Below, one piece after another: positions 12,195 to 38,748 of a stretch of DNA of 64,000 nt (position 1 is the first letter of the stretch; each line of letters opens with the position of its first letter). The position numbers were made by a program, and so were the translations under genes. The DNA lies in assembly GCA_963714975.1 (NCBI GenBank), contig CAVQQD010000002.1:1088001-1152000 (forward strand). Direction: 5' to 3'. A model generated the notes under the pieces. The model was not told the DNA's origin. It made no database searches and was given only the letters and a program-made list of their open reading frames with translations. The DNA is from an uncultured Gammaproteobacteria bacterium (GTDB lineage Bacteria; Pseudomonadota; Gammaproteobacteria; JAURND01).

Positions 12195-12281
12195 GGGTTA
12201 AGCCTCCACATACCCCATATTTGAATCCTGCTGCACGAGGCAGGCAGAACACCCCAAATATGTGACGGCATGTGTGTGTTA
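12195..12281 (-). ncRNA. t44: rpsB leader / t44 cis-regulatory RNA (S2 autoregulation)
   Basis: Minus strand ACACACACATGCCGTCACATATTTGGGGTG...AATATGGGGTATGTGGAGGCTTAACCC follows the gammaproteobacterial rpsB leader pattern. Confidence 0.8.
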
Positions 12282-12337
12282 AGCGTCGTCTCCGCAAGGG
12301 ACGACACAATTAATAGATTGCACTTTAAGCGGGTGTT

Positions 12338-15604: not shown

Positions 15605-15771
15605 ATTGACGAAAATCCTAATGTTCCAAATCCTCTCTCCCGCTTGCGGGAGCTTCTGCCGTCATTGCGGAGGCAATGTGTGCATCGGATAGCTTGCAAA
15701 AAACTTAATTACCACTATAATGCTCTATAGTTTGAGCATTAACTCTTTCATTGATCAATTTATTGACTGTT

Positions 15772-16125
15772 ATGGCTAGAAAAAAGAGTGTAATTTTACC
15801 CTCCCTGCAGCGAATTTTAACTGAGGTAGGGGAAAATATTCGTCTTGCGCGCTTGCGCAGAAAAATTTCTGCAGTCTTGTTAGCGGAGCGTGCAGGGATA
15901 TCTCGCAATACCTTAAGAGCCATAGAGCAAGGGGACCCCAAAGTAACATTTGGTGCTTATGCTAATGTTTTACTGTGCTTACGCTTAGAAAAGGATTTGA
16001 AATTACTAGCACGCGATGACGAGCTAGGGCGCAAACTACAAGATTTGGGTTTAGCTACTAAAGTACGGGCACCCAAACTAAAATCGAGAAATAAAGATGA
16101 ATACAACACAAAAGCGATCGATTGA
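15772..16125 (+). CDS. XRE-family HTH protein, putative HipB-like antitoxin
   Basis: GENIRLARLRR..LAERAGISRNTLRAIEQG helix-turn-helix; overlaps the start of the HipA-like gene. Confidence 0.85.
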   Translation: MARKKSVILPSLQRILTEVGENIRLARLRRKISAVLLAERAGISRNTLRAIEQGDPKVTFGAYANVLLCLRLEKDLKLLARDDELGRKLQDLGLATKVRAPKLKSRNKDEYNTKAID

Positions 16126-17374
16126 AGTCTGTGTCCACTGGCGAGGTTTACCTCAGCCTAGCTTGCTGGGAATGCTTTATATTACTCCTTCCCGAGGTAA
16201 GGAAATTTTTTCATTTGAATATAACCCTGATTGGCTGAGTAAAAATCAGGGTTATACTTTAGATCCTGCATTGCAATTATACTCAGGAATACAGTATACG
16301 CCCCAGGGCCAGGATAATTTTGGTATTTTCCTTGATTCCGCCCCTGATCGTTGGGGACGCTTTCTCATGAATCGTAGAGAAGCGCAGTTAGCTCGAGAGG
16401 CAGGACGCAAAGAACGAAGATTGCTCGAATCAGATTATCTCTTAGGGGTATATGATGAGAACCGTATAGGCGCAATTCGATTTCGCACAGATTCTAATAG
16501 CCCCTTTCTTTATTATAATAAAGCTTATGCTTCACCCCCTTGGACTTCTTTACGTGAATTGGAGTACGCCAGTTTAAATCTTGAAAATGCGGATGCAGAA
16601 AACAATCCAAATTATTCCAAGTGGTTGCAGATGCTAATTGCCCCAGGCGGTTCTTTAGGTGGTGCGCGCCCAAAAGCCAGCGTTATTGATGAAAATAAAC
16701 ATCTGTGGATTGCCAAATTTCCAAGCGCAAATGATGAACATGATATTGGTGCCTGGGAAATGGTTGCATATAAACTTGCGCAGCGCGCTCAAATTATTAT
16801 GCCTGAAGCAAAAGTAGAAAAATTTAATAGTCGTCATCACACTTTTCTTAGCAAACGTTTTGATCGAACCGGATCGGATGAGCGAATCCATTTTGCTTCC
16901 GCAATGACTTTATTGCAGCGTTTAGATGGTGAAGATTTTTCTGCTGGCGCGAGCTATTTGGAACTTGCAGAATTTATTGCCCAACAAAGTGCGCAACCTA
17001 ACCAAGATTTAGAGCAATTATGGCGCAGGATAGTGTTTTATATTTGCATATCCAATGTGGACGATCACCTGAGAAACCATGGTTTTATTCTGCAAGAAAA
17101 TGGTTGGATATTATCACCGGCATTTGATATTAATCCAGTAGCCAGCGGAAATGGTCTTAAACTGAATATTTCTGAGACCGATAACTCACAAAGTTTAACG
17201 CTTGCAAAAGAAGTTGCAGAATTTTTTCGAATAAAACCGAACCAGGCAGACAAAATTATTCAAGAAATTACCACTGCAGTGAAATACTGGCGAAAGGAAG
17301 CCAATAACTTGCATATTCCAGTCAGAGAACAAAACAATATGGAGCGAGCGTTCCAGCCTAGAGGGAGCCATTGA
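16097..17374 (+). CDS. hipA: HipA-family Ser/Thr kinase toxin (type II TA)
   Basis: [39 protein letters not shown] and LSPAFDINP. Confidence 0.88.
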
Positions 17375-18029: not shown

Positions 18030-19272
18030 AACGCAGGGCCTCCGCTGGCTGTGTACGAGAAGCCTGCCATGCCGGATATAACGTAGCTAACAAACTCAAG
18101 CCTAACGCAATCACGCAAACCTGCCAAACATCGGACACTTGAATGCGCGAAGGCAGATAGTCCACTACATAAATCGAGGAAGAAATAAACGAAACATGAA
18201 ACACGTGCTGCAGAAAAGCCACTACTTCGGTGACATTATGCGCCAAAAGAATGCCACCAATTAAACCCAACAAGGTACCGACGCAGCCTACCACCAGTCC
18301 TTGCACAATAAAAGTCGCCATAATGGTCCGAGGCGTAGCGCCAAAAGTGCGAAGAATGGCAATTTCCGCTCGTTTATCATTCACAACCATCACTAAGGTC
18401 GAAACTAAGTTAAAGGCAGCTATCGCGATGATCAGTAATAAAATAAGGAAGATCATAGTTTTTTCCATGCGGATCGCCTTAAAATAAGTGCCTAATTCTC
18501 GGGTCCAATCGGTAATTAGATATTCCGCTGGCAGAACCTGTTGTAACTGCTCGGCCACCACCGGGGCAATATACAAATCACTCACCCTTAACCGCAGACC
18601 ACTGACCGCACCCCCCATTTGATATAACAATTGAGCATCGCGTAAATTAATAAAGGCCATGCCACGATCCATTTCTTGCCGACCATCCACATGAAAAATC
18701 CCTGCTACGGTAAATTGCTTAAACCGGGGGATGATCCCTAACGGAGAGGCATTAGCCTGCGGAGTGAATAAAATCACTTTATCCCCCAAACCTAATCCTA
18801 AATTTTCGGCAATGCCTTCCCCAATCACGATGCCAAATGCCTGGGGCTGCAACGCATCAAAGCTCCCTTGCACCAAATGCGCTGCCAGTTGCGATACCCG
18901 CGCTTCTTCCTGCGGTAATATCCCAGTGACCAATACCGGCGCAGAACTACCTAAATGGGAAAGCATTCCCTGCGCGCTAACAAAAGGAGCAGCCGCTTTG
19001 ACATGCGGTTGCTTTTCAACTAATTGTTGCAGTTGACTCCAATTGGCCAACCGACCCTCCACATCACTTACGGTGACATGATTAGCTAAATTAAATAATC
19101 GATTGCGAATCTCGAAATCAAAACCATTCATCACCGACAATACAGTGATCAGCACGGCCACTCCCAAGGCAATGCCGATCATCGAAGCTAATGAAATAAA
19201 CGAGACAAATTGATTGCGACGCTTGGCGCGGGTATAACGCAAGCCAATATAAAGTGCTAATGGTTTAAACAT
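18022..19272 (-). CDS. lolE: Lipoprotein-releasing ABC transporter permease (LolC/LolE/LolF)
   Basis: [27 protein letters not shown] and [18 protein letters not shown]; a single permease gene. Confidence 0.9.
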
Positions 19273-19473
19273 AAGTCCCTGTGCCGCTGGTGGAATATTT
19301 ATTTCAGCTACTGCTACTATTCATACTACTACTGCTCTGCTTGAATTTTTCTGCTTATTTTTTCTTCTAACTATTCAATATCAGGGCACATTCTAACTCA
19401 AATGGTTCGGATAATGCCAGCACCCAATCCAGGTCAGTGCGATATAATCTAGCCTGATCTCAGGGATCTATAT

Positions 19474-21486
19474 TCATTTCTTCAGAAAACAATCCAACAC
19501 CTCGCGCGCCACCTCCTCAGTCAAAGGCTTTTCTAGCACCCCATTAATACCCGCAGCCGCACATTCTGCTTGCACTTTTTCAACATTATGGGCCGTCAGA
19601 GCCACAATCGGCACTGGATTTTTTCGGCCTTTTTCTAGGGTGCGAATATGCTTTGCCACTGCCAATCCACTCATATCTGTTAGCCCAATATCAGTAATAA
19701 TCAGCACATATTTATCCAATTCAAAAATTTCTAAAGCTTTCTCACCTGTATCCACAATATCAACTGTATAACCTAAGTGCGTGAGAATCGATTCCACGCC
19801 TTTTTGAGCCATCCGATTATCCTCAACCAACAAAATACGCGGACCTATCTTCTCTTCCTCGCTGGCAGCATCCCCAAGCGGTGCTAGCTTGGTAAACTTA
19901 GGCTTCACTGCTCTCGGTTTCAGGAATGCCTTGGCGGGTAGAAAAGGAAAGGTGATGGTGAAGCAACTGCCCTTACCCACTTCGCTGTCCACATCAATTT
20001 TTCCTCCCATCAAAGTGACAAATTTATGCACAATATACAGCCCAATCCCATGACCCTCAAATTTGCCTTCATAAGAAGGCGTCAAACGCGTAAAGCGCTC
20101 GAAAATGCTAGCGATTTTTTCTTGGGGAATGCCCATGCCGGTATCACGAACTTTTAAACAAAGTTCCTCTTTTTCTTTGCCAGTGTCTTCATCGCGAGTT
20201 TTCTGTAAGAGAATGTCCATGCTTATCGAGCCTTCCTCAGTAAATTTAATCGCATTGCCTAGTAAATTTAAAATTATCCGATAAAATCCCGGCGCGCTGG
20301 CATACACCATTTCAGGAATAGCGGGATCATAAGTGGAATAAAATCCTAAGCCTTTTTGTTTCATGGAAGGGGTCAACATCTCGACAAGCTGATCCGTTAT
20401 GGTTTGGGGATTGAAATTTTCATTGCTAAGTGCCACCCCTTCGGTTTCAATCCGCCCCATCTCTAAACAATTCATAAAAAATTCTATCAATTGCTTGCCC
20501 GAATTTTTAATCATCTGCACATTTTCATAATTATCTTCGAGAGCATCGGGCTCCTCGAGTTGCGTGCCGATCCTGTGCGCCATGGAAATAATACCCGCCA
20601 GCGGCGTTTTGACATCGTGACTCATGTTTTGGATAAAATCCGTTTTAGCACGATCGGAAGCTTCGGCGGCTTCTAAGGCTTCTTTTAATTCCTTCTCCAT
20701 TGCTTTGCGTTCAGTAATATCAGTGGCATTTCCAATAATGCCAATAATTTTTTCTTTATTTTCGTCATATAGGGGGGCTTTGTGGGAGAGAAATATTCTA
20801 ATTTCGTTGTTTAATATACCTGTTTCTTCTACGACCATGGGAATTCCAGATTGCATAACCTCTAGATCATTTTGTCGTAATCTATTAGTTACCTCATCAT
20901 CCCAACCCAATATTTTTGCAAAATCAAAAATACTTTTTCCAATCATTTCCTTGCCAGTTTTAAGTCCATATAATTGAGCTTCAGCATCATTTGCACCTAA
21001 GGTGACGGAATTTTTGTCTAACCAATAAATAGGGTCGGGTAGATTAGTCAGGATATTTTCCAAATATACATTTGTTAACCGAAATTTCTCCAGTGCATCT
21101 GATTTGGCTGTATCTAATGCAAGCTCTAAACGTTTCCTATCGCTAATATTTATTAAGGTGCCCACCACCCCAACCACCTCATCTTCTGGAGTACATAATG
21201 GTCGCTCAGTGACCAAATAACAAATTAATAATCCATTATGTAAAAATTCTAGCTCAAAACTATTTTCAGTCCTTGTCTCTATAATGCTTCTAGTGAAGGA
21301 TTCTAACTCTTGTGCTTTCGAACACCAAGGTAATTCATAGTCAGTTCTGCCAACTAATTCATCCAAATTGTCAAAATTAACCATTTCCAACATTTTTTGA
21401 TTTCCACCCTGATATATGTTACCCATATCTTTCCAATAGGCAGATATAGGTAAAGAAAGAAGCAAATCAAAATTAGAAAATTTCAT
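19474..21486 (-). CDS. Cytoplasmic hybrid sensor histidine kinase (PAS-PAS-HisKA-HATPase-REC)
   Basis: Two PAS-like repeats ending NISDRK and DITERK; H-box NMSHDVKTPL, N-box NLLGNAIKFT, DTGMGI, GHGIGL; receiver ILLVEDN..D..ALTA..KP. No TM helix seen. Confidence 0.92.
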   Translation of the reverse strand: MKFSNFDLLLSLPISAYWKDMGNIYQGGNQKMLEMVNFDNLDELVGRTDYELPWCSKAQELESFTRSIIETRTENSFELEFLHNGLLICYLVTERPLCTPEDEVVGVVGTLINISDRKRLELALDTAKSDALEKFRLTNVYLENILTNLPDPIYWLDKNSVTLGANDAEAQLYGLKTGKEMIGKSIFDFAKILGWDDEVTNRLRQNDLEVMQSGIPMVVEETGILNNEIRIFLSHKAPLYDENKEKIIGIIGNATDITERKAMEKELKEALEAAEASDRAKTDFIQNMSHDVKTPLAGIISMAHRIGTQLEEPDALEDNYENVQMIKNSGKQLIEFFMNCLEMGRIETEGVALSNENFNPQTITDQLVEMLTPSMKQKGLGFYSTYDPAIPEMVYASAPGFYRIILNLLGNAIKFTEEGSISMDILLQKTRDEDTGKEKEELCLKVRDTGMGIPQEKIASIFERFTRLTPSYEGKFEGHGIGLYIVHKFVTLMGGKIDVDSEVGKGSCFTITFPFLPAKAFLKPRAVKPKFTKLAPLGDAASEEEKIGPRILLVEDNRMAQKGVESILTHLGYTVDIVDTGEKALEIFELDKYVLIITDIGLTDMSGLAVAKHIRTLEKGRKNPVPIVALTAHNVEKVQAECAAAGINGVLEKPLTEEVAREVLDCFLKK

Positions 21487-24400
21487 GTTAAAACCTCACT
21501 GGAATAGGTGGAAGGGGATAAATAGTAATATTTAGCACATTCAGCAAAGTCAGCGTGCTTTTGAGAAAAATTTTGGCCATGCTCTAATGAAGATAAACAT
21601 TCGTCCATAACTTTAGCCAAAAATTTCACGTTTGGTTCCTGAAACATACTTTCATGACCTCCAGGGACTAAATAAAGCTCTATTGGAAATGGGGAATATT
21701 GTTCCCAATGATTATATAGTCCGTCAATATTCTTAAATATTTCTACTGTAACAGTTGCTTTAAATAGGGTCAATTTCGTATTTAAGAAAGGTGTTTTATA
21801 AGCTCTAAACATTTGAGACCTATGCCACTGTAAAGCAAGTAAATGTTCGGCATTTGAAATTCCTTTGGCCTGAAATTTATTTTTCATTGCATTATACTGA
21901 CGTCGCATATTAGCCTCAAAAAAAGCGCGCTCTTCTAACATTTGAGGGAAAGCTGCCCAGCCATCTAACAAACCAACAAAACCCACTTCCTCTCCTAATA
22001 TTTGCAATTGTTTTGCAATTTCTACACTGATATTGGCGCCACCCGAAGCTCCAGCAATTAAATAAGGCCCATGTTTTTGGACAGAACGAATAATACTAAT
22101 ATAATAAGTAGCCATTTCCTCAACGGTATTAAATATTATATTTTTTGTATCAATGCTTGGGTCTTGAATGGCATATATTGGACGACCTTGCTGCATATAA
22201 TGAGAAAGAGAAATATACCAAAATACAGTTCCACCCACTGGGTGAATTAGAAACAATGGATTATTATTCTCTCCTGATCGCAGTGAAATTAAGCATCTGT
22301 GTTTTTGGTCTAAATCTTGATGAAGCACTTTTTCAAGAAGTTTTCTTTCTTGGGATGCGGTGCTGATTAATTCCGCCATACGAATAACTGTTGGCTCAAT
22401 CAAAAAATCCCGTATTACCAATTCCACATTAAAAATTTTTTGAATCCAGGATAAAATCTGCAATATCGACAGTGAATTTCCTCCCAATTCAAAAAAATTA
22501 TCACGAATGCCAATAGGTTTCTTTGTTTGGAGTACCTTTTTCCATAGATGAATAATATTCTTTTCCTCTTTCGATCGCGGGGGTTCAAAGACTCTATGAC
22601 ACCGATCTCCATGAACATGACTAGGTAACCCTTCTTTGTCAATTTTCCCATTTTTAGTTAATGGAAATTTTTCTATAAAAACAAATAACTTAGGAGTCAT
22701 GTACTCAGGCAAACATCGATTCATTGATCTGTACAACTCTTGTGCATTTAATGTTTTATTCTTCTTAATAACATAAGCAACTAACTGTTTATATTTGTAG
22801 ATATTTTTTACTAGTACCACAGCATTAACAACGAATGGATGAGATTTTATCATTCGCTCCACTTCTCCTAACTCAATACGAAAACCTCGGATTTTGACTT
22901 GACTATCCACACGCCCCATAAATTCTAACATGCCACCTGGAGACCAACGAACCAAATCACCTGTCTTATATAATTTCAGAACATTATTTTGTATTTTGAC
23001 AAAATTAAAATATTTTTTCGAAAGAGCGCCATTATTTAAATAACCTCGCGCCAATCCATAACCACCTATATATAATTCACCAATCACTCCAATAGGGACA
23101 GGTTGTAAATGTTGATTCAAAACATAAAGTGAAACGTTGTTTATTGCTTTACCAATAAAACAACGCTCATCCTGAAAATCACAAAAAGCCATTGTGGCAC
23201 AAACCGAAGCCTCTGTGGGACCATAAGCATTAACTAGATGATGTCTTTTTTTGGACCATTGTTTCATTAATTGTATTGAACAAGCTTCTCCAGCAACAAT
23301 TATAGTCTTTAGATAAGGATAATCTATAAATGAAACTGTTTCTAAGATAGAAGGTGGCAGGGTTACAACAGAAATTTCATTTTCCTTGATAGTGTTACTT
23401 AAGATATTTCCAGGTAATAACTGGTTTTTTTCTGTCATAACTAAATTAGCACCAATTAATAATGCAGTGTAAATTTCCCATACAGAAGCGTCAAAACCAC
23501 ACGAAGCAAATTGCAAAATTTTATCATGTTCTGTTAGGTCAAGTTGTTTGATGGCTGAGCTTATGGTGTTAGTGATACCTAAGTGAGATATCATTACCCC
23601 TTTTGGATTGCCAGTTGATCCAGAGGTATAAACAACGTACGCTAAGTCGTTTTTGTTTATCGTGGTAAGCAAATTATTCTTGCATTTTGTTTCAATATCA
23701 GGTTGCACTAAGTTGATACTAATGCAGACTGGTTTAAAGATTAATTTATTAAAAATTGGCTTTATCCTATTGATTAAATGATTTTGAGTGATTAAAAACT
23801 TAGTTTTACAATCATTTAAAATATATTCAATTCTTTGTAATGGATTAGAAGAATCTATTGGTAAATATGCCGCGCCTATTTTAATTACTGCTAACATGGC
23901 AATGACAATTTCAAATCCGGGGTCAATAGTTAGAGCGAATAAAGTATCAGCAACATTCTCTGTGTGATAATGAATTCTAAGTTGCTCTTGCAGATAATGC
24001 GCAAGCTGATTCGCTTTAGAGTTTAGTGTTGAATAAGTCATACTCTTACTCTGAAAAAAAATGGCATTATTATCAGGTGTTTGTTGAACTTGATATTCAA
24101 ACCAATCTTTTATGTTTTCATACTTTAATATCTCACGATTTTGGTTCCATTTAATTAAAATCTGGTTTTGCTCTTCGGCAGATAAAATATTTAAATTAAA
24201 AACAGACTCATGAGGCTTTATTAAACCTTCCTCAATTAGGTTCTGGAAATGTTCAACAAGTTGAGTTAACATAGTATGATTAATGCGACTAGCATCATAC
24301 GCAAATTTAAGAGAAATTTTTTCCTGAGGGATTACCGCTAAAGTAAGCGCGTAGTGGGTAGGGTCATAAATTTCAATTTCATCGAAAGATGTGCCTAAAC

Positions 24401-27400
24401 CAGATAAATTTCCTATAGGATAATTTTCAACAACAAGTAACGTTTCAAATAGTTCGTGGGAAGCTGACTTCGGTTTATTGGCAATCCATTCCTGAATATC
24501 ACTGAGCGAAGCATAGCTATGATCTAATATACCAAACATGTTTTTTTGCGCAGTCTGCAAGTATTCCAATACACTCATCTCCTTGGTGTAGTTAAGTCTA
24601 ACGGGCAAGGTATTAATGAGCAACCCTAACATCTTATTTACATCATTTATTTCGGCAGGTCGCAAGGAAATTGTGGTGCCGAATAGAATGTCATCCGCCT
24701 GTGTATATCGGTGTAACAATAATCCCCAAATTGATTGGAAAAATGCGCTTAAAGTAAGCTTGTATGTTTTTAAAAAACTTCTAATGGAATGAGATAATGA
24801 ATTCCCAAGATCAACTTCCTTGAGACAATACTTGATGGAATGAGATTGGTTTTGAGGAAATAATATTCCCACCTGACTTAACAATCCTGGATTAATACTA
24901 ATATTCTTTAAATAATCCTGCCAAAATTGCCGGGCTTTAAACCGATTTTGTCGTTGCAGCCAATGGACATAATCTAAGTATTTGGGTGATGGTTCCCATG
25001 TCAAAATTTTATTGTCCCCCAGAGCAGAATAACGAGCGGCAAGCTCATTCAGTAACAGTGACATGGACCAACCATCCAGAATACAATGATGAAAAGTGAA
25101 AACAAGTATTGAACTTTCAGGAGAGGTTCGAATTAAAACAGCACGCAATAAAGGCAATTTATCCAGGGAAAAAGAAGCTTCTCTGTCGGCTTGGAGAAAA
25201 TCATGGAGACGCTTTTGGTGTTCCTGCTCAGGAACCTCGGTCCAATCATATTCTTGCCACAGAAAATTACAGTGCTGTTCTACCACTTGTAACGCTTCGC
25301 TAACATTTTCCCATACAAAGCGAGTTCGTAAACTCTCGTGCCGAGCAATGATCTCAGATAATGTTTTCTGCAAGAAGGGTGTATTAATAAGCTGGTTGAT
25401 TTTCCAACTGTATTGGGCGATATAGGCTCCTGAATCCTGCGAAGAAATTGATTGGAAAAGTATGCCTTTTTGTAGAGGAGTTAATGGGAAAGAAAAGTTT
25501 TCTGGTTGCTTGCGGGGGAAATTGGCTATAAAACGTGTAATTTCATCACGATAACTTGTGGCCATTCCATGTATTGTTTTTGCACTGTGTAAATTGTTGC
25601 TGTATTCCCAATAAACATGCAATCGCTGGTGTTTTATCATAGCTTCAATACTAATAACATGTGTCCGTAAATTTTTGGCATAAGAAACAGGCTTAATCCA
25701 TTGTAATTGCAGCGGACTGCCTTGAGCAAAGACTTGATCAAACCTCCCCCAATAATTAAAACTGATCTCCTGAGAGTATTTTTTTGGTTTCCTTTTTTTA
25801 TTTAGATAGCGGAAAACTCCATAATCAATTCCATCATTGGGGATAGAGCCTAGCTCTTGTTTAATCTCTTCAAGATTCTTCATAAAATCATGTGATTGAT
25901 CATAATGCAGTTTTACTGGAAACAAACTGGTAAACCATCCCATAGTTTGTGAGTAATTTGAACCAAGGACTTCGGATCGTCCATGAGACTCCAGGTCGAT
26001 TGAAAATTCTATTGCTCCAATCCATTCTGAAACCACTTTAGCTAAAGCGGTCAATAATATTTCATGAACACGAGTATTATTCTGCTGGGCAATTTGAGTC
26101 AGTAGCTTGGTTTCTGCACTGGTAAAGCTGATTTCAACGCAACAGGTAGTATCGTACAGGTTTTCTCCAAGGTTAAAATCTTTTGGGATTGTGACTTGCT
26201 GATCCTCTATAGCCTTCCAATAGGACCCTAATTTATGGTTTTTATTTTGATAAACATATCCTTGTAATGATTGAGACCAAGATTTAAAACTTGAACCCAG
26301 CAAGCCTTGAACTGTACTCTTGGTTACATGGGCCGAATAAATTTTCTCCATATCTTCCAGAAGAACCCGCCAAGAGACGCCATCAATCAGTAAATGGTGG
26401 ATCACGATCAATAGATAGGATTCCAACGCAGGGTTATTCTTGATTAAGTAAAACTTAGCTAAAGGGCCTTTGCGTAAATCAAAACCCAAATGGGCTTGAC
26501 GGATTAAGCCATCAACCACCTTGTCCCATTGCGCTTTATCAGCATTTTTGGCTTTGACCATTTCTATTAAATCCTCTGCTTGCAGGGGATGGTCGTCATA
26601 ATATTGAGTCCAGTGACTGCCAATTTTTTCAAAGCGCAATCTAAGCGTATGGTAGGTAGAAATTAATAGTTCGATCGATTTTCGTATTTTACTTAGATCT
26701 AGGTGGGGCGATAACTTTAGCAAACAGGCTTGACTAAATTGCTCTTTTTTTGCTAGTGGTAAATTAAAAAACCAATGCTGGATTGGGGTCAATGCTACCC
26801 GACCTTCGGGTTTGACGTCATGAATGGATTGTGCGGATAATTGCACCTTATCGGCCAACATCTCGATGCTAGAGTTTTCAAAAATTTGTCTTACTTGAAT
26901 CGTAATACCGTATTTCCTGGCCGCCGCACAAAGTTGCATCGCTACAATAGAGTCCCCACCCAAAGCAAAAAAGTCATCGGTGATTTTCACGGGGGTTTTA
27001 AATGTTTCCTCAAATATCTGTTTTAATAACGATAAAACTCCAGGTTGCAATGATTCTTGAAAATGCTTATCGCGTGAATAGGCTGGAGCATCCATTTTAT
27101 AGAAATATTCCGCCCATCGCGCAAGCTGTTTTTTATCTATTTTCCCATTTTTATTAAGTGGAATTTTATTGAGGGTATAAATTCGCTGCGGAATCATGTA
27201 AGAAGACAACCAGCTTTTTAGGGTGATTTTGAGTGATTCTGCATCATTAGTGTGATTAGGATCTTGGCTCAACACGACAAAGGCGATTAATTGCGTCTGG
27301 TTAAACGGGGTGTTATAGGTGATAACGACAGCTTGCTGGACGCCCTTGACCTTCGTTAACGATTTTTCGATTTCTCCTAACTCAATTCGAAAGCCACGAA

Positions 27401-29438
27401 GTTTAATTTGATCATCGATTCTGCCAATATATTCTAAATTGCCATCAGGCAACCATCTCACTAAGTCACCGGTTTTATATACATTGACCAGCTCAGAATG
27501 AATCGATAGGTTTAAAAATCGTTGCTGAGTTTCTTCGGGTAAATTTAAATAGCCACGCGCAATGCCCGACCCGCTCAGATACAATTCACCGACAGCGCCC
27601 AGAGGAATAGGCTTTTGAGTGTGATCTAAAACATAGACAGCACGGCTAGCTAAAGGCTTTCCAATATTAGAGCAGAGTAAATTCCAGGGCTCTTTTTCGG
27701 TACTCTTTAGAAACGTGGCATGGATCGTCGATTCGGTGATGCCGTACATATTGACTAGACAAGGCGTATCAAAACCATGGCGCGCAAACCAGCTGGACAG
27801 CGCTGGAAATGAAAGCTTTTCTCCACCAAAAATGACATAGCGTAATGCAAGTTTTTCCTGCTTCACTCGATCTATTTCAGCAAATTGATAAAATGCCGTA
27901 GGTGTTTGACTGAAGACGGTAATGCCTCGGCTAATCACCACCTCGTACAATGTTTCAGCAGATTGAATTACTTCCTTGGGCAGGATAATTAACGAGCCCC
28001 CGTGCAATAAAGCTCCAAAAATTTCCCACACGGAGAAATCGAAATTAAAGGCGTGGACACAACTCCAGACATCAGACTCATTAAATCCATAAATTTTCTG
28101 ACTTGAATGAAAAGTTGCAACAAGATTACCATGCTCCACTAAGACCCCTTTGGGCTTGCCCGTAGAACCGGAAGTGTAGATGACATTAGCAAGATCATGC
28201 TCAGCAATATCAAGGCTTACATTACTTACATTATTTTCAGTAATCGCAAAAATCTCTTCAATATTAATGACGTTATTATGCAGGCCTGAAAGTTCATTTC
28301 CCAATTGCACCGCAAATCGACAGCCAGTATCTTGCAGTATCCATTCGATTCTGGCGGAAGGAGACTCAGGATCAATCGGCACATAAGCACCCCCCGCTTT
28401 TAAAATCCCCAAAATCCCAATAATCATTTCGATACTGCGCTCCATGCAAATCGCGACTAAAGTTTCAGCTACCACCCCTTGCTGACGTAAGTAATGCGCG
28501 AGTTGATTGGCTTGTTGATTAAGCTCGCGATAGGTGAGTGATTGATTTTCAAAGCACACGGCGATTTTATTGGGATGTTTTTGAACTTGTTCTTCGAATA
28601 ATTGCGGAATGGTTTTATCGCGTGGATAGTCGATGTCAGTTTGATTCCAATCAATTAAGATTTGCTGCTGTTCTTGAGGTGTAAGTAGCGCTAAATCGGC
28701 AATGGAAGTTTCTGGTTGCGTGGTAATGGCGGTTAATAGAGTTTCTAAATGGCCAGGCATTTGTTGCAGGATGGTTTTTAAGTAGGGTTCTTGTGCTAAG
28801 CATTTTTGATCGACGTGCCAAGATAAACTACGATCTTTGGCAGATATCATCAACACCAAAGCAGCATGAGATTTTTGTAGCTGCTCGACTTCTCCCATAA
28901 CAACGGCAGTAAATACCGCTTGTTTGACTTCGGTTAAAGTTGGATAACGATAAAATATATCGGGTAAATAACTGCTTTTTTGCTGCATGGCCAGTAACTC
29001 AGCTTGTAATTGGGACACTACTTGGCCGAAGTGTAATCCGTCTTGTAAGGCAGTGAAATACGGTAGTTCTAAACTCGTCCTGGCATGGATGCCAGGATCC
29101 AGATCACTAGGATGTGAAGCCTTTTGACAAGGTAATTGCAGCAACACCCCTACTTTGGGTTGATTACCGAGACGATAGAGGTAGACGAGCCAGAGGGCTA
29201 ACAGCAAGGTGTTGAAATCATGAGTAGGGTAATGTTGGTGTAATAATTTTTGTAAAGGGGTGGGGAGGGATCCATTGTTGTAAATACCCCCTCTCCCTAA
29301 CCCTCTCCCACCTTCCCTCGCTAACGCTCGGGCGGGGGAGAGGGGACTGGAGACTTCCTTCTCCCCTTGTGGGAGAAGGTGCCCCTTCGACAGGCTCAGG
29401 GTAGGCTGGCGGATGAGGGGTGGGTTCTGCAAGTTCAC
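21483..29438 (-). CDS. Two-module NRPS: partial C-like - A(Thr-like) - T - E - C - A(Phe-like) - T - TE
   Basis: A cores YTSGSTGKPKG and YTSGSTGNPKG; T motifs LGGDS and LGGNS; E domain HHLLIDGVSW, ESHGR, GWFT; C domain HHCILDGWS; TE HPVGG and GASGG. The first ~52 codons are repeat-derived and the true start is uncertain. Confidence 0.9.
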   Translation of the reverse strand: MNLQNPPLIRQPTLSLSKGHLLPQGEKEVSSPLSPARALAREGGRGLGRGGIYNNGSLPTPLQKLLHQHYPTHDFNTLLLALWLVYLYRLGNQPKVGVLLQLPCQKASHPSDLDPGIHARTSLELPYFTALQDGLHFGQVVSQLQAELLAMQQKSSYLPDIFYRYPTLTEVKQAVFTAVVMGEVEQLQKSHAALVLMISAKDRSLSWHVDQKCLAQEPYLKTILQQMPGHLETLLTAITTQPETSIADLALLTPQEQQQILIDWNQTDIDYPRDKTIPQLFEEQVQKHPNKIAVCFENQSLTYRELNQQANQLAHYLRQQGVVAETLVAICMERSIEMIIGILGILKAGGAYVPIDPESPSARIEWILQDTGCRFAVQLGNELSGLHNNVINIEEIFAITENNVSNVSLDIAEHDLANVIYTSGSTGKPKGVLVEHGNLVATFHSSQKIYGFNESDVWSCVHAFNFDFSVWEIFGALLHGGSLIILPKEVIQSAETLYEVVISRGITVFSQTPTAFYQFAEIDRVKQEKLALRYVIFGGEKLSFPALSSWFARHGFDTPCLVNMYGITESTIHATFLKSTEKEPWNLLCSNIGKPLASRAVYVLDHTQKPIPLGAVGELYLSGSGIARGYLNLPEETQQRFLNLSIHSELVNVYKTGDLVRWLPDGNLEYIGRIDDQIKLRGFRIELGEIEKSLTKVKGVQQAVVITYNTPFNQTQLIAFVVLSQDPNHTNDAESLKITLKSWLSSYMIPQRIYTLNKIPLNKNGKIDKKQLARWAEYFYKMDAPAYSRDKHFQESLQPGVLSLLKQIFEETFKTPVKITDDFFALGGDSIVAMQLCAAARKYGITIQVRQIFENSSIEMLADKVQLSAQSIHDVKPEGRVALTPIQHWFFNLPLAKKEQFSQACLLKLSPHLDLSKIRKSIELLISTYHTLRLRFEKIGSHWTQYYDDHPLQAEDLIEMVKAKNADKAQWDKVVDGLIRQAHLGFDLRKGPLAKFYLIKNNPALESYLLIVIHHLLIDGVSWRVLLEDMEKIYSAHVTKSTVQGLLGSSFKSWSQSLQGYVYQNKNHKLGSYWKAIEDQQVTIPKDFNLGENLYDTTCCVEISFTSAETKLLTQIAQQNNTRVHEILLTALAKVVSEWIGAIEFSIDLESHGRSEVLGSNYSQTMGWFTSLFPVKLHYDQSHDFMKNLEEIKQELGSIPNDGIDYGVFRYLNKKRKPKKYSQEISFNYWGRFDQVFAQGSPLQLQWIKPVSYAKNLRTHVISIEAMIKHQRLHVYWEYSNNLHSAKTIHGMATSYRDEITRFIANFPRKQPENFSFPLTPLQKGILFQSISSQDSGAYIAQYSWKINQLINTPFLQKTLSEIIARHESLRTRFVWENVSEALQVVEQHCNFLWQEYDWTEVPEQEHQKRLHDFLQADREASFSLDKLPLLRAVLIRTSPESSILVFTFHHCILDGWSMSLLLNELAARYSALGDNKILTWEPSPKYLDYVHWLQRQNRFKARQFWQDYLKNISINPGLLSQVGILFPQNQSHSIKYCLKEVDLGNSLSHSIRSFLKTYKLTLSAFFQSIWGLLLHRYTQADDILFGTTISLRPAEINDVNKMLGLLINTLPVRLNYTKEMSVLEYLQTAQKNMFGILDHSYASLSDIQEWIANKPKSASHELFETLLVVENYPIGNLSGLGTSFDEIEIYDPTHYALTLAVIPQEKISLKFAYDASRINHTMLTQLVEHFQNLIEEGLIKPHESVFNLNILSAEEQNQILIKWNQNREILKYENIKDWFEYQVQQTPDNNAIFFQSKSMTYSTLNSKANQLAHYLQEQLRIHYHTENVADTLFALTIDPGFEIVIAMLAVIKIGAAYLPIDSSNPLQRIEYILNDCKTKFLITQNHLINRIKPIFNKLIFKPVCISINLVQPDIETKCKNNLLTTINKNDLAYVVYTSGSTGNPKGVMISHLGITNTISSAIKQLDLTEHDKILQFASCGFDASVWEIYTALLIGANLVMTEKNQLLPGNILSNTIKENEISVVTLPPSILETVSFIDYPYLKTIIVAGEACSIQLMKQWSKKRHHLVNAYGPTEASVCATMAFCDFQDERCFIGKAINNVSLYVLNQHLQPVPIGVIGELYIGGYGLARGYLNNGALSKKYFNFVKIQNNVLKLYKTGDLVRWSPGGMLEFMGRVDSQVKIRGFRIELGEVERMIKSHPFVVNAVVLVKNIYKYKQLVAYVIKKNKTLNAQELYRSMNRCLPEYMTPKLFVFIEKFPLTKNGKIDKEGLPSHVHGDRCHRVFEPPRSKEEKNIIHLWKKVLQTKKPIGIRDNFFELGGNSLSILQILSWIQKIFNVELVIRDFLIEPTVIRMAELISTASQERKLLEKVLHQDLDQKHRCLISLRSGENNNPLFLIHPVGGTVFWYISLSHYMQQGRPIYAIQDPSIDTKNIIFNTVEEMATYYISIIRSVQKHGPYLIAGASGGANISVEIAKQLQILGEEVGFVGLLDGWAAFPQMLEERAFFEANMRRQYNAMKNKFQAKGISNAEHLLALQWHRSQMFRAYKTPFLNTKLTLFKATVTVEIFKNIDGLYNHWEQYSPFPIELYLVPGGHESMFQEPNVKFLAKVMDECLSSLEHGQNFSQKHADFAECAKYYYLSPSTYSSEVLT
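29076..29118. repeat. Palindromic element in frame within the NRPS (encodes SHPSDLDPGIHART)
   Basis: Hairpin TCCTGGC-ATGGAT-GCCAGGA followed by TCCAGATCACTAGGATGTGAA; the CATGGATG loop core also occurs at ~41445. Confidence 0.55.
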
Positions 29439-29729
29439 CCCTCATCCGGCCTGCGGCCACCTTCTCCCACAAGGGGAGAAGGAATGAGGACTTATTTTCG
29501 CGGTGATTAAAATTCAGGAAGGGAATTTTGGCAGGCTCTATGGATTGCCATTGGGAAACCCAGTAGGCTTCATCGCCTCCTTCGCTCCAGCATAATCCTT
29601 CGACCTTATTCCTTCTCCCCTTGTGGGAGAAGGTGGCCGCAGGCCGGATGAGGGGTGAACCATCCAAGCTCCCCCTCTCCCTAACCCTCTCCCACCTTCC
29701 CTCGCTGACGCTCGGGCGGGGAGAGGGGA
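29287..29729. repeat. Cluster of five palindromic repeats (B, A-rev, A-fwd, A-rev, B) at the formyltransferase/NRPS junction
   Basis: Copies at ~29287-29346, 29357-29420, 29436-29482, 29611-29657 and 29671-29729. Confidence 0.9.
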
Positions 29730-30635
29730 TAAAGACACTGCATCACCTTCTAAGGTACAAATCTGCCGAATGGCAATGTCGTAACTAGCAGTTGCAACGC
29801 GCCAATAATCCGCAGTAGCAGCAACGATTGTTCCAGGAGCTGCAGTCGATGGCTCGGGTAATAGTTCTAATTGAGTGATAATAAATTCATCTTCCCAGCT
29901 TCTTTGCTGGGATGACAACTTAAATTTCGGACAAGTAAAACGATTAGGATAAGAGCCAAATTGAGTAGCACGAAATAATCGCTCAATAGCTTCGGCACTG
30001 GCATTCCAATCAATCCAGCCATCGCCAGCAGGTTTTTGATGCAGGCCAAAATAGCTACGTTGACTTAAATCTTGAGGCTGGCATTGGTAACTGTGCTTCG
30101 CCAAAAATTGCACTAAATCCGGGAAGCTTTGCAGCGCGGCTTCGTAGCATTTGAGGTTTAAACTCAATGCGGTTTCATCTTCAGTAATCGGCACCATTAC
30201 TTGCTGCAAAATATCACCGGCATCGACAGTTTCAGTAGCTACATGCCAAGTAATGCCATGGGTCTGTTCTTGATTTAAGATCGCCCAAGAAGTGGCATGA
30301 ACTCCGGCATAACGGGGTAACGGTGCATCATGAAAATTAATCGCCAATTGCCGAGGCAGATTGAGTATCGCCGCAGGCAAAATCTGCGCATTGACGATGC
30401 TAAATAAATAATCAAAGGGAGTTTTGTTGAGTGCTTCCTCGGCGGCTGCTAGAGAGACATAGTGAGGAATTCTCTGTTGCAAGGCCCATAGTTCTGCGGT
30501 TTCATACGCAGAAATAATACCTAGTATTTGCTGTCCTTGTTGTTGGATAATTTTGGCACATTCCAGATGGAGATTATCCTCTCCAATGATAAAACAAGTG
30601 AAAGTATCGGGAGACATAGAATTGAATGACTTCAC
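29538..30635 (-). CDS. Formyltransferase (NRPS formylation-domain type), separated from the downstream NRPS
   Basis: INFHDAPLPRYAG and HGITWH...VDAGDI give the N/H/D catalytic motifs; FMT C-terminal-like IDWNASA segment. The last ~60 aa are repeat-derived or out of frame. Confidence 0.88.
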   Translation of the reverse strand: MKSFNSMSPDTFTCFIIGEDNLHLECAKIIQQQGQQILGIISAYETAELWALQQRIPHYVSLAAAEEALNKTPFDYLFSIVNAQILPAAILNLPRQLAINFHDAPLPRYAGVHATSWAILNQEQTHGITWHVATETVDAGDILQQVMVPITEDETALSLNLKCYEAALQSFPDLVQFLAKHSYQCQPQDLSQRSYFGLHQKPAGDGWIDWNASAEAIERLFRATQFGSYPNRFTCPKFKLSSQQRSWEDEFIITQLELLPEPSTAAPGTIVAATADYWRVATASYDIAIRQICTLEGDAVSLSPLPARASAREGGRGLGRGGAWMVHPSSGLRPPSPTRGEGIRSKDYAGAKEAMKPTGFPNGNP

Positions 30636-30678
30636 GTTGGGGTTTTAAATTTTCCCTCCTTATTAAATTCCTAAAATT

Positions 30679-30839
30679 GTCATTCGAAGCAAGGCGAAGA
30701 ACCTCCCCTGGGCAAAATACCTGAATTTCAGGTATAAACCTAGATTCGGCAGTAGAAACCTACTGCCGAATCTAGGATAAAAAACTTCCCTGCTATGCTG
30801 CCACTTACAAAGGAGGCCCTTCAATTCGCTCAGAATAAC
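30679..30839. repeat. Nested repeat: outer GTCATTCGAAGC..GAAGAACCTCC / GGAGGCCCTTC..GCTCAGAATAAC element containing a 17-bp-arm perfect palindrome (30739-30776)
   Basis: CCTAGATTCGGCAGTAG-AAAC-CTACTGCCGAATCTAGG and ATACCTGAATTTCAGGTAT lie inside imperfect outer arms. Confidence 0.7.
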
Positions 30840-30999
30840 GATCGGTGGGCCGGTTGCACTTGCACCCTTACCTATCTAGGTCGACAGTTTACTAGCTTAA
30901 GGAAAAATTAACAAGTGTAGCAAAAGATTTATAAAAATATCCTCACAATGCTGCGTTAATGGGAAAGGATAGCCAATAGTAGCTCAAAAACCACTGCGG

Positions 31000-32289
31000 C
31001 TAAGCCCCCCTATCAATAACTTTCGCTGAGCTGCCATTTTCACAAGCAGTAATTAATTCATTTTGCAGGGGCATCAAATCTTGGCGATTTTTTTCACCCA
31101 GGGGAGCTGTTTGGTTGACTTCACTCAATGAGGTGGTGCTAGAGCAACTAGATCCAAAGAAAGCCGATTGACTGGCATGGAGAGAAGGAGGAGTGCTAAT
31201 CGATGATGGTATTGTAACTAGGGTTTGCTGTGTCTCCAGGCTAGATTGTGGCATAAGGTGGGTGCTTTCCTTTTTTTCTGGTTCCTTAGGCGTCTTAATA
31301 TCGGTGGGTCGCGTAGAGACAAATTGGCTGCCATCGTTTAGCTTTTTTCCAGTAGAAGAGTTAGGGCTAATACTAGGTTGCGCCGTTTTTTCTTTTACTT
31401 CACTCTCTTGGACGACTTGCCATAATTGATCGAGCTGCTTGACCAATAATTCAGCCTCAGGACGTTTTTCAGGTGCTTGCCAACACTCTTGAACAATCGT
31501 TTTAAATCCTGCAGGTGTATCAGGTGGAAAAGTTTCTTTCTTTCCACCTATAATCAAATCGACAAGCATACCTGTCACTTCTTTATAGGGTGCTTTACGG
31601 CTGGCTAACTCCCACAGTATCATACCTGCGCTATACACATCCGATTTTTTTGTGGACGGGTTACGTTGGAGAATTTCAGGAGCAGCCCACAATATACTGC
31701 CTTGAAAATCACTGCCTTGAAAATCTTCTTCAGGGATCGCTGCAGAGCTGGTTTTAAACTTTGCTGAGCCAAAGTCAGCTAATTTAGCACGACCATTACT
31801 ATTGAGCAGAACATTGGGGCTTTTTAAATCACAATGCAAAATATCTTTATTGTGTAAATCACGTAGACCAATACTGATATCTAAGCCAATACGATAACGG
31901 GTATCCCAAGAGATATTTTGTCTACTGTGTAATAAATCATATAAGTTACCTCCCGGCATATATTCCATCACCAAGCAATAATGTGGTTTTTCTAAGCTGA
32001 TACCTTTGAATTGCACTAAATGCTTAGAATAGGTGCTAGCTAGCACCATCACAGCCGCTTCGTTGCAAATTTCTTTTTCAATTTCTTCGTGAGTGAAGTA
32101 TTTTTTAATGGCTACAGTTTCAGAATTCCATTTTCCTCGGAACACTGCAGCAGAACCGCCTTTAGCTAAAGGCTCATCTTCATAATCGTATACTAAATCC
32201 CCATGGCGAATCCTAAAAAATTCTCCATACGACTGGATGAGTGGTTTGGAAGATTGGAGTTTGGTTTCAATGAGTTGGTCTTGTGCCAA
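31000..32289 (-). CDS. Eukaryote-like (TKL/MLK-type) Ser/Thr protein kinase, candidate effector, possibly a fragment
   Basis: VFRGKW..VAIKK, VMEYMPGGNL, LHCDLKSPNVLL, ADFG, WAAPE and SDVYSAG.ILWEL; Ser/Thr/Pro-rich tail; TTG start with AGGAG RBS. Confidence 0.88.
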   Translation of the reverse strand: MAQDQLIETKLQSSKPLIQSYGEFFRIRHGDLVYDYEDEPLAKGGSAAVFRGKWNSETVAIKKYFTHEEIEKEICNEAAVMVLASTYSKHLVQFKGISLEKPHYCLVMEYMPGGNLYDLLHSRQNISWDTRYRIGLDISIGLRDLHNKDILHCDLKSPNVLLNSNGRAKLADFGSAKFKTSSAAIPEEDFQGSDFQGSILWAAPEILQRNPSTKKSDVYSAGMILWELASRKAPYKEVTGMLVDLIIGGKKETFPPDTPAGFKTIVQECWQAPEKRPEAELLVKQLDQLWQVVQESEVKEKTAQPSISPNSSTGKKLNDGSQFVSTRPTDIKTPKEPEKKESTHLMPQSSLETQQTLVTIPSSISTPPSLHASQSAFFGSSCSSTTSLSEVNQTAPLGEKNRQDLMPLQNELITACENGSSAKVIDRGA

Positions 32290-32372: not shown

Positions 32373-32460
32373 TGGTGCCCGAGGCCGGAGTCGAACCGGC
32401 ACGGGATAAACTCCCGAGGGATTTTAAGTCCCTTGCGTCTACCTATTCCGCCACCCGGGC
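32373..32460 (-). tRNA. tRNA-Leu(TAA)
   Basis: GCCCGGGTGGCGGAATAGGTAGACGCAAGGGAC-TTAAAA-TCCC...GGTTCGACTCCGGCCTCGGGCACCA, with long variable arm and encoded CCA. Confidence 0.96.
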
Positions 32461-32475
32461 TATGCATTGCTATTA

Positions 32476-32546
32476 AGGCTGGGGTCGGAATCGAACCGGC
32501 GTCCACGGCTTTGCAGGCCGCTGCATAACCACTCTGCCACCCAGCC
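32476..32546 (-). tRNA. tRNA-Cys(GCA)
   Basis: GGCTGGGTGGCAGAGTGGTTATGCAGCGGCCT-GCA-AAGCCG...GGTTCGATTCCGACCCCAGCCT; CCA not encoded. Confidence 0.96.
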
Positions 32547-36466: not shown

Positions 36467-36576
36467 TGGGCGGCTCTTGGTCCCTGTGCAACGCTATATT
36501 GTGAACCCCGTCAGGCCCGGAAGGGAGCAGCGGCAGCAGTAAATTCGGGTGCGCAGTAGGGCTAATGAGCCGCCCA
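36467..36576 (+). ncRNA. ffs: SRP 4.5S RNA, copy 1
   Basis: Domain IV GTCAGGCCCGGAAGGGAGCAGC; terminal stem TGGGCGGCTC/GAGCCGCCCA; upstream of dnaX. Confidence 0.93.
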
Positions 36577-38638: not shown

Positions 38639-38748
38639 TGGGCGGCTCTTGGTCCCTGCGCAACGCTATATTGTGAACCCCGTCAGGCCCGGAAGGGAGC
38701 AGCGGCAGCAGTAAATTCGGGTGCGCAGTAGGGCTAATGAGCTGCCCA
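38639..38748 (+). ncRNA. ffs: SRP 4.5S RNA, copy 2
   Basis: Same 110-nt sequence as copy 1 with two substitutions, both compatible with base pairing. Confidence 0.93.

Follow-up and report, generated by a model that had tools for sequence, protein, structure and literature searches.

A formylation-domain nonribosomal peptide synthetase and an adjacent VqmA-type PAS hybrid kinase as a candidate signal synthase and receptor cassette

Introduction

Bacterial synthase-sensor pairs include LqsA/LqsS in Legionella and CqsA/CqsS in Vibrio, where parallel hybrid kinases feed LuxU. To our knowledge, Lqs is the sole characterised autoinducer system of the intracellular Legionella-like group. The present analysis concerns a further candidate pair, a nonribosomal peptide synthetase (NRPS) with a formyltransferase (F) and a neighbouring hybrid histidine kinase with two PAS domains, located in a stretch of 64,000 nucleotides (nt) of the uncultured gammaproteobacterial genome G000. 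This stretch is called the window, its cassette c1, and all coordinates are window positions unless a contig (C2, C3) is named. An earlier note on this DNA had proposed a synthase/receptor pair. Conserved adjacency, agreement between PAS sequence and adenylation (A) code, and a VqmA-type PAS give good support to a functional coupling of synthase and sensor; binding of the NRPS product by the kinase is still a supposition, and comparative evidence leaves the chances that the kinase senses this product about evenly balanced. The analogy drawn to Lqs and Cqs holds for the logic, a synthase gene beside a sensor kinase, but not for the parts: the c1 synthase is an NRPS and not a CqsA-type pyridoxal phosphate enzyme, and the receptor is a soluble PAS protein and not a membrane protein. 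As in the Vibrio LuxU scheme, several hybrid kinases free of a histidine phosphotransfer (HPt) domain could converge on one HPt protein.

The main text of Tobias et al. 2016 (PeerJ, PMC5126622) describes the Legionella clusters C, G and I as one-module NRPSs with a formylation-domain start, with N-formyl amino aldehydes, alcohols or acids as predicted products, and places NRPS clusters B-D beside a 'transcriptional regulator', suggesting signalling. That main text uses none of the words kinase, sensor and histidine and describes neither the link between PAS and A code nor the mosaic structure, and the literature outside subscription journals yielded nothing beyond that paper on the pairing of F-NRPS and PAS kinase. 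Like clusters C, G and I, c1 starts with F, a condensation (C) domain remnant and A, with 30-38% identity over residues 6-608, and has the same kind of neighbour. Unlike those one-module clusters, c1 has two modules, so that its product is predicted to be a dipeptide, and an epimerization (E) domain, is one of five paralogous copies, and has a kinase without HPt; the single module ending in a reductase (R) or thioesterase (TE) domain and the HPt-ended kinase of the Legionella type are not found in c1.

The agr locus of Staphylococcus and comQXP of Bacillus are polymorphic pheromone loci. As in these loci, one hypervariable block of the present cassettes covers signal production and the receptor sensor, between conserved flanks that include the kinase domain; unlike alleles of agr and comQXP among strains, the variants are paralogues in one genome and relatives in other families, and the signal would be non-ribosomal. 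ApdA-type NRPSs start with F, A and a carrier (T) domain. LgrA (PDB 5ES5, 6MFZ) also has an N-terminal formyltransferase before A-T, and the c1 F open reading frame (ORF) matches the LgrA F domain at E about 1e-6. Unlike LgrA, the c1 F is closer to ArnA, FDH and Fmt (E 4e-18 to 1e-12), keeps the Formyl_trans_C part, is a separate ORF, and is followed by a C-domain remnant between F and A. In ham/pvf/mgo-type systems a small NRPS makes an amino-acid-derived autoinducer (valdiazen, PMC5878181; Pvf, PMC10194917), and in the parts of these reports drawn on here such systems differ from c1 in having no formylation domain, different tailoring and no adjacent PAS kinase.

VqmA is a cytoplasmic receptor for the autoinducer 3,5-dimethylpyrazin-2-ol (DPO) that also binds linear N-alanyl-aminoacetone via F67, F99 and K101, and the portions used of a 2019 preprint confine its homologues to Vibrio and phage VP882 (bioRxiv 10.1101/2019.12.19.881847). 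The c1 kinase resembles VqmA in having a PAS domain that is cytoplasmic and belongs to one sequence family with that of VqmA, whose ligands are a small amino-acid-derived signal and a linear N-aminoacyl amino-ketone. Unlike VqmA, which has a helix-turn-helix output, c1 has a hybrid histidine kinase as output, and the VqmA signal arises from Tdh chemistry whereas the c1 synthase is an NRPS. New here are the dipeptide variant in five paralogous copies and the mosaic of an NRPS-PAS specificity block, together with the conflict between PAS and kinase-core trees, the pairing of cassette c4 with the Legionellaceae locus L072, the tally of 80 loci and the VqmA link.

Results

Organisation of the c1 cassette

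The ORF listing bears out the gene order of the earlier note, with formyltransferase, NRPS and hybrid kinase all on the minus strand.

19474-21486, minus strand: hybrid histidine kinase ORF, 670 amino acids (aa); PAS_4 x2, HisKA, HATPase_c, Response_reg (Pfam)
19477-19851, minus strand: kinase receiver
about 19927-20691, minus strand: kinase HisKA-HATPase
20692-21486, minus strand: kinase PAS1-PAS2
21483-21486, minus strand: ATGA stop/start overlap of NRPS and kinase, GAGGT upstream
21483-29438, minus strand: NRPS ORF, 2651 aa; AMP-binding x2, Condensation x2, PP-binding x2, Thioesterase (Pfam)
21609-22283, minus strand: NRPS TE
22344-22568, minus strand: NRPS T2
22584-24113, minus strand: NRPS A2
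24144-25508, minus strand: NRPS C
25524-26798, minus strand: NRPS E
26814-27053, minus strand: NRPS T1
27069-28598, minus strand: NRPS A1
28629-29276, minus strand: NRPS X (C-domain remnant)
20722-28359, minus strand: variable 'specificity core', from A1 past core motif A2 through TE, plus PAS1-PAS2
29285-29731, no strand assigned: repeat cluster in the F-NRPS linker, dispersed small palindromic repeats
29538-30635, minus strand: formyltransferase (F) ORF, 365 aa; Formyl_trans_N and Formyl_trans_C (Pfam)
30636-30936, minus strand: leader/promoter region common to the cassettes; blastn blocks of 84-86%, six-copy alignment
31000-32289, minus strand: eukaryote-like Ser/Thr kinase gene upstream of c1 (Pfam)

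The proposed ATGA overlap of NRPS stop and kinase start is seen by direct reading, with GAGGT 7 nt 5' of the ATG; in the paralogous cassette c2 the overlap measures 14 nt with AGGAGG, and in c3 the genes are separated by a gap of ~50 nt with GGAG. Hydropathy of the kinase stays below 1.6 in every 19-residue window, and the protein therefore has no predicted membrane segment, matching its description as membrane-free. Pfam recovers the two PAS stretches that had been claimed and finds no HPt domain in the c1 kinase; a separate 280-aa REC-HPt protein is encoded elsewhere in G000, at C2:270849-271691.

The catalytic motifs of F, A, T, E, C, TE and kinase are all intact in c1. The F domain keeps NFH, PRYAG and DAGDI (Formyl_trans_N match 3e-18, Pfam), the NRPS keeps GGDS, GGNS, both HHxxxDG, GASGG and GGHESM, and the kinase keeps its H, N and G boxes and the receiver Asp. 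The combination of a GGDS carrier motif with an E domain is present as the earlier note had read it, and its codes DFWSIGMIHK (A1) and DAWTIAAVCK (A2) were re-derived from a core-motif-anchored alignment. Code positions and amino-acid assignments follow the Stachelhaus/GrsA convention, by which A1 is presumably Thr-like and A2 of Phe type. The solved structures nearest A2 are LgrA, TycA and GrsA, with LgrA at the top (E 3.7e-162). X, the first part of the NRPS after the linker, derives from the C-terminal half of a condensation domain, of which ~215 aa remain, matching Pfam Condensation positions 250-456 at E 2.3e-6, under the gathering score.

The F and NRPS ORFs share one frame and are parted by a ~440 bp repeat cluster containing stops, composed of small palindromic elements with 50-190 genomic matches each. 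Residues 1-300 of the F ORF constitute the F domain and its last ~60 residues are translated repeat sequence. In c2 and c3, F is fused to the NRPS (3030 and 3006 aa), with a repeat-derived linker of like kind read in frame, whereas the middle of the c1 linker is in a different frame with stops inside. Accordingly, F and the first A-T share one polypeptide in c2 and c3 but not in c1, and formylation of the c1 product is uncertain because the F domain is split off as its own ORF. Repeats in the linker as such are tolerated, since the intact fused c2 and c3 carry them in frame.

The leader holds a 45-nt block that is invariant in the six-copy alignment, and c1 alone among the copies has a palindromic repeat inserted in it, at about 30700-30776. 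The leader folds with a z-score of -5.6, and its hairpin is a dispersed repeat with matches at many sites on all three contigs. A consensus promoter/terminator scan of 19200-31100 gave counts no higher than shuffles, with none called in the leader, and Rfam at gathering threshold gave no match within the c1 locus. A query of public sequencing runs for 20701-30700 returned neither DNA nor RNA runs.

The statement that no transporter is adjacent needs qualification: an ABC transporter lies 202 nt downstream, and it scores as LolCE (493 vs 362 bits) and LolD (321 vs 308 bits), over the NCBIfam equivalog cut-offs. Given these scores and the single copy of LolCE, the genes are assigned to housekeeping and ruled out as product transporter of the cassette. 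No phosphopantetheinyl transferase adjoins c1, again as noted earlier; the single Sfp-type enzyme (241 aa) sits elsewhere, at C2:871904-872227.

Paralogous cassettes and their mosaic structure

Genome G000 comprises 2.56 Mb in 3 contigs with a GC content of 0.431. It contains six F copies, that of c1 being 86-92% identical to the five others, five genes or gene wrecks built F-X-A-T-E-C-A-T-TE, and six kinase loci 68-90% identical to the c1 kinase; c1 thus belongs to a family of at least five paralogous cassettes. A kinase of one paralogue family lies directly downstream in four of the five F-NRPS cassettes (c1-c4). Cassette c4 is fragmented with its kinase retained, c5 is truncated and has no kinase, c6 consists of an F stub and a truncated kinase 20 kb away, and in c7 a kinase precedes an A-T-TE-like gene. 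The predicted A1/A2 pairs, cassette by cassette, are Thr-like/Phe, Phe/Gly, Phe/DVQFYAEVVK, DVLQLAIIYK/Thr-like and Phe/Thr.

Nucleotide comparison (blastn) divides c1 into conserved flanks and a variable core. Two blocks are 84-93% identical to the paralogues. Block 30936-28360 takes in the leader, F, the linker, X and the initial 80 aa of A1, and block 20721-19478 covers the kinase from the tail of PAS2 through its stop codon. Nothing in the intervening 7.6 kb, whose GC is 0.37, matches the paralogues at the nucleotide level. Among c1, c2 and c3 the protein identity is 91-92% in F, 87-88% in X, 92-98% in the A1 start and 87-93% in the kinase core, while c1 against c2 and c3 shows 28-49% in the remaining NRPS and 30-37% in the PAS region. 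Variable cores have a GC of 0.36-0.40 against 0.44-0.46 in the flanks, and within the c1 kinase the third-position GC is 0.28 in the PAS region and 0.44 in the core. A variable block spanning synthesis and receptor sensor between conserved flanks, a pherotype-like feature, is therefore present. Cassettes c2 and c3 have module 1 in common (A1 96%, T1 81%, E 75% identity) and diverge from the C domain onward (32-40%) and in the PAS region (30%), so that the first substrate alone does not set the PAS sequence. A scan of metagenome contigs with the kinase core found no close relatives, the best being 35% identical.

The duplicated unit extends over 16-20 kb, and besides Ser/Thr kinase genes it contains another kinase accompanied by a receiver. 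The Ser/Thr kinase gene is counted in the unit because paralogues (54-64% identical, tblastn) stand upstream of c1, c2, c3, c4 and c6, sometimes in tandem, for example at C2:8708-9988 and C3:794346-797869; none was seen beside c5.

Further genes accompany the paralogues. In c2, c3, c4 and c6, divergent genes encode a 465-aa PAS kinase (93-96% identical among copies) and a 250-267-aa protein whose sole family match is a weak one to TetR_C (E 0.05), and in c2, c3 and c4 a 131-aa receiver gene joins this pair. Full sets lie at C2:11328-13934, C3:799485-802041 and C2:1227454-1230048, with a partial copy at C2:388556-390737. In c5 (C2:1177489-1181176) only fragments of the 465-aa kinase and the 250-267-aa protein occur, the latter cut by a transposase gene. 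A 972-aa UvrD-like helicase and ankyrin protein follows the kinase in c2 and c6 (96% identical; C2:25922-28840, C2:417415-420252), and a 98-aa remnant of it follows c3.

Distribution of the pair in Legionellaceae

Scoring of 203 out of 206 Legionellaceae genomes gave 80 F-X matches in 51 of them, all of which were examined. An adjacent PAS-HisKA-HATPase(-REC-HPt) gene is present in 65 of the 80; together with the four of five cassettes in G000, this is the opposite of the outcome that the earlier note had named as refuting its pair, namely homologous NRPSs that never neighbour such a kinase. The remaining matches are 7 without a kinase in the stretch fetched, 5 F-only fragments and 3 cut by contig ends. 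Among the first 61 loci the kinase is downstream on the same strand in 38 (frame gaps of -95 to +184 nt) and divergent in 22, the divergent kinases nearly all belonging to code class DLPE[LM]GEVSK. This class is built F-X-A-T-TE (L094, L095, L110, L112-L129), and its kinase is divergent wherever that side is available (20/21). Across the first 41 loci only the NRPS and kinase families recur, with no third gene family conserved. From the tally, the orientations and the changing neighbours, the pairing belongs to small F-NRPSs equipped with an R or TE release domain of their own, and it occurs in shifting neighbourhoods and two orientations.

Of the seven kinase-free matches, three are longer assembly lines and four are F-X-A genes that lie opposite a separate C-A-T-R gene. 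The latter (L134-L137) are ~850 aa long without a carrier domain, have the C-A-T-R gene 1-3 kb off and no kinase, and represent a different use of the same starter. One Legionella metagenome-assembled genome (MAG) has PAS hybrid kinases flanking its F-NRPS on both sides. Pattern searching across species genomes turned up F-X-A starts at full length in cyanobacteria, in alphaproteobacterial MAGs, in Pelosinus and in two MAGs of Legionella type. A further F-NRPS, in genome G002 of the family to which G000 belongs (L030, G002 C4:268000-287999), is built F-A-T-C-A-T-E (3083 aa); major facilitator superfamily transporter genes flank it left and right, and an AfsA-like hotdog protein is encoded close by.

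No fused NRPS-kinase form occurs in the open frames of the Legionellaceae F-X matches, and in a wider search the best 120 longer proteins were all generic multi-PAS kinases, a weak negative, as scoring reached just 7998 candidates and the search was swamped. Orphan PAS-PAS-HK-REC-HPt kinases (L096-L107) adjoin an aldehyde dehydrogenase gene in the loci checked by Pfam; where the arrangement is of the L096 type, genes for a CoA-transferase, an aldolase and a hydratase are also found upstream.

Agreement of the sensor with the A-domain code

In a set of 33 one-module loci, PAS distance correlates with A-code distance at r 0.85, against r 0.20 for kinase-core distance. The partial r of 0.86 was reached by 0/2000 permutations, a count that is not a probability because related sequences are non-independent. 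Same-code pairs share 55% identity in PAS and 49% in the core, while different-code pairs share 33% and 44%. On the PAS tree the 12 code labels can be placed with 11 changes, the lowest number possible, whereas Gln-code and Val-code kinases interleave with high support on the core tree. Approximately unbiased (AU) tests on the core alignment reject a Gln-code clade (p 5e-38) and a Val-code clade (p 5e-81), their groups being set by A code although the tests followed inspection of the core tree. The cores of the four G000 kinases form one clade with full support, yet the PAS alignment rejects grouping the PAS domains of these four as a clade (AU p 4.5e-4). The PAS tree follows the A-domain code and the kinase-core tree does not.

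The Legionellaceae locus L072 is dimodular, and its two codes are those of c4. In the NRPS core its identity is 44-58% to the c4 pieces against 34-37% to other cassettes, and its PAS, 54% identical to the c4 PAS, is placed as sister to it in the PAS tree. L072 shows no special closeness to c4 in F-X (34%) or in the kinase core (32%). Pairs of the L068/L086, L056/L065 and L079/L088 types combine differing code classes with cores grouped at high support; L068 and L086, in one genome, share 67% identity in the core vs 36% in PAS. These patterns suggest that the transmitter part was repeatedly exchanged or converted in Legionellaceae lineages, as in G000.

Relation of the PAS domains to VqmA

A family profile of 19 PAS-PAS regions was run against solved structures. 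The VqmA entries 6UGL, 6IDE and 6KJU, which represent VqmA with DPO in the part of the source used (PMC8284805), rank first (E 8e-14), followed by the BvgS PAS (3e-13), with all others far weaker. PAS1 of c1 alone matches VqmA at E 3.5e-4.

Discussion

In the mechanism proposed for c1, A1 would load a Thr-like residue, which T1 with its GGDS motif and the E domain would turn into D-allo-Thr; the C domain would couple it to Phe activated by A2, and TE would free a dipeptide of about N-formyl-D-allo-Thr-L-Phe. With F as a separate ORF, any formylation in c1 would have to act in trans. The PAS domains would then bind the product or a derivative in the cytoplasm, setting the kinase/phosphatase balance of a transmitter and receiver that are near-identical across the paralogues. 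All kinase copies may feed one shared phosphorelay, which is probable because the transmitter has no HPt. Each cassette would act as a private signal-and-receptor channel, its specificity residing in one contiguous block of NRPS modules and PAS that would be both inherited and swapped as a whole between the conserved flanks. Which ligand is bound, whether the signal diffuses and what the output is are parts of this scheme that we infer. Extending it, with less confidence than an even chance, we propose that Legionella-like bacteria hold a widespread class in which small F-starting NRPSs produce signals in the form of N-formyl amino acids or dipeptides, each sensed in the cytoplasm by an adjacent VqmA-type PAS hybrid kinase, that G000 runs several such channels into one phosphorelay, and that the specificity block is swapped between flanks and lineages in a pherotype-like manner.

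Several observations weigh against product sensing. The VqmA relation is uneven: PAS2 alone matches VqmA weakly (E 0.05), and in the alignment PAS1 has L, V and E where VqmA has its contact residues F67, F99 and K101, K23 alone being kept, so that a ligand other than VqmA's is expected. The pair is also not universal. Seven Legionellaceae F-X loci with other architectures have no kinase, an order-level search of 9 genomes gave one F-NRPS, that of G002, without a kinase, and 5/5 F-X loci outside Legionella-like bacteria have none within 10 kb. Kinases with PAS-PAS regions 33-40% identical to that of c1 are spread over many Legionellaceae genomes, and in 12/12 loci fetched they had no NRPS nearby. 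No exporter or importer is linked to the pair, and a free-acid dipeptide is poor at crossing membranes. Both the non-independence of related sequences and the order of tree inspection and AU tests soften the statistics given above. Finally, NRPS modules and PAS are physically contiguous, and for this reason linkage with gene conversion of the flanks could explain much, yielding both the mosaic and the PAS-code agreement with no ligand link.

It is possible, though on balance doubtful, that c1 itself is a decaying cassette which makes no signal or an altered one while the family works, an estimate that overlaps with those for product and substrate sensing. Signs of erosion in c1 are the F domain split from the NRPS by an out-of-frame repeat cluster, the palindromic repeat within its otherwise conserved leader, and the HK465, RR131 and U267 genes of the other cassettes, which tblastn finds missing. 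Elsewhere in the family c4 and c5 are plainly broken and already fragmented, and c6 is down to an F stub and a truncated kinase. Against decay, the c1 frames of 2651 aa and 670 aa are open with every catalytic motif intact, and a repeat-derived linker is read in frame in the intact fused c2 and c3.

Sensing of an NRPS substrate, or of another metabolic cue, by a kinase that acts as cluster-situated regulator of production or serves an unrelated output, is unlikely. The co-variation of PAS and code fits it equally well, which tells against product sensing, and relatives with similar PAS domains occur without NRPS in metabolic neighbourhoods (aldehyde dehydrogenase, CoA transferase). It is opposed by c2 and c3, whose common Phe module 1 goes with PAS domains just 30% identical, and by the nearest solved PAS, which binds an autoinducer. 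It is further opposed by the same-strand downstream position of the kinase in 38 of the first 61 Legionellaceae loci, by which the kinase would be made along with the enzyme and not ahead of it.

A product aimed outward, at an amoebal or animal host or at competitors, with the kinase monitoring or limiting production for feedback or self-protection and not for communication, appears improbable. N-formyl peptides are molecules that hosts recognise, and G000 is rich in eukaryote-like genes beside the cassettes (Ser/Thr kinases, ankyrin proteins), but among the 41 loci checked neither an exporter nor a resistance gene accompanies the pair as a conserved neighbour, and many parallel specificities with matched PAS domains resemble recognition more than a single bioactivity. 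That adjacency is a mere by-product of segmental duplication in G000, where the whole 16-20 kb unit is duplicated, is very hard to maintain, as it is contradicted by the 65 of 80 Legionellaceae loci that keep the pair in unrelated neighbourhoods and two orientations.

If the kinase does read the product of its neighbouring NRPS, the cassettes would provide synthase and receptor together for an NRPS-made signal in intracellular bacteria, and would extend the VqmA-type autoinducer-binding PAS past Vibrio and its phage. They would also supply a series of naturally matched pairs (Val-like, Gln, Phe and several dipeptides) in which signal and sensor specificity change together. The predictions are concrete, with A codes that suggest the product of each cassette, which can be matched to its own or a foreign PAS.

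Other features of the window

Small signal recognition particle (SRP) RNA, usually single-copy in bacteria, occurs twice on the plus strand, at 36475-36570 and 38647-38742, ~2.2 kb apart (69 and 71 bits, over the Rfam gathering score). A HipA-like kinase gene lies at 16097-17374 on the plus strand (HipA_C E 9e-51), and a 124-aa ORF at 15751-16125 overlaps its start, the two being a possible hipBA-type toxin-antitoxin pair. Two tRNA genes are located at 32376-32546 on the minus strand, between the Ser/Thr kinase gene and a fumarase gene, and a t44 RNA match occupies 12197-12294 on the minus strand (56.6 bits).

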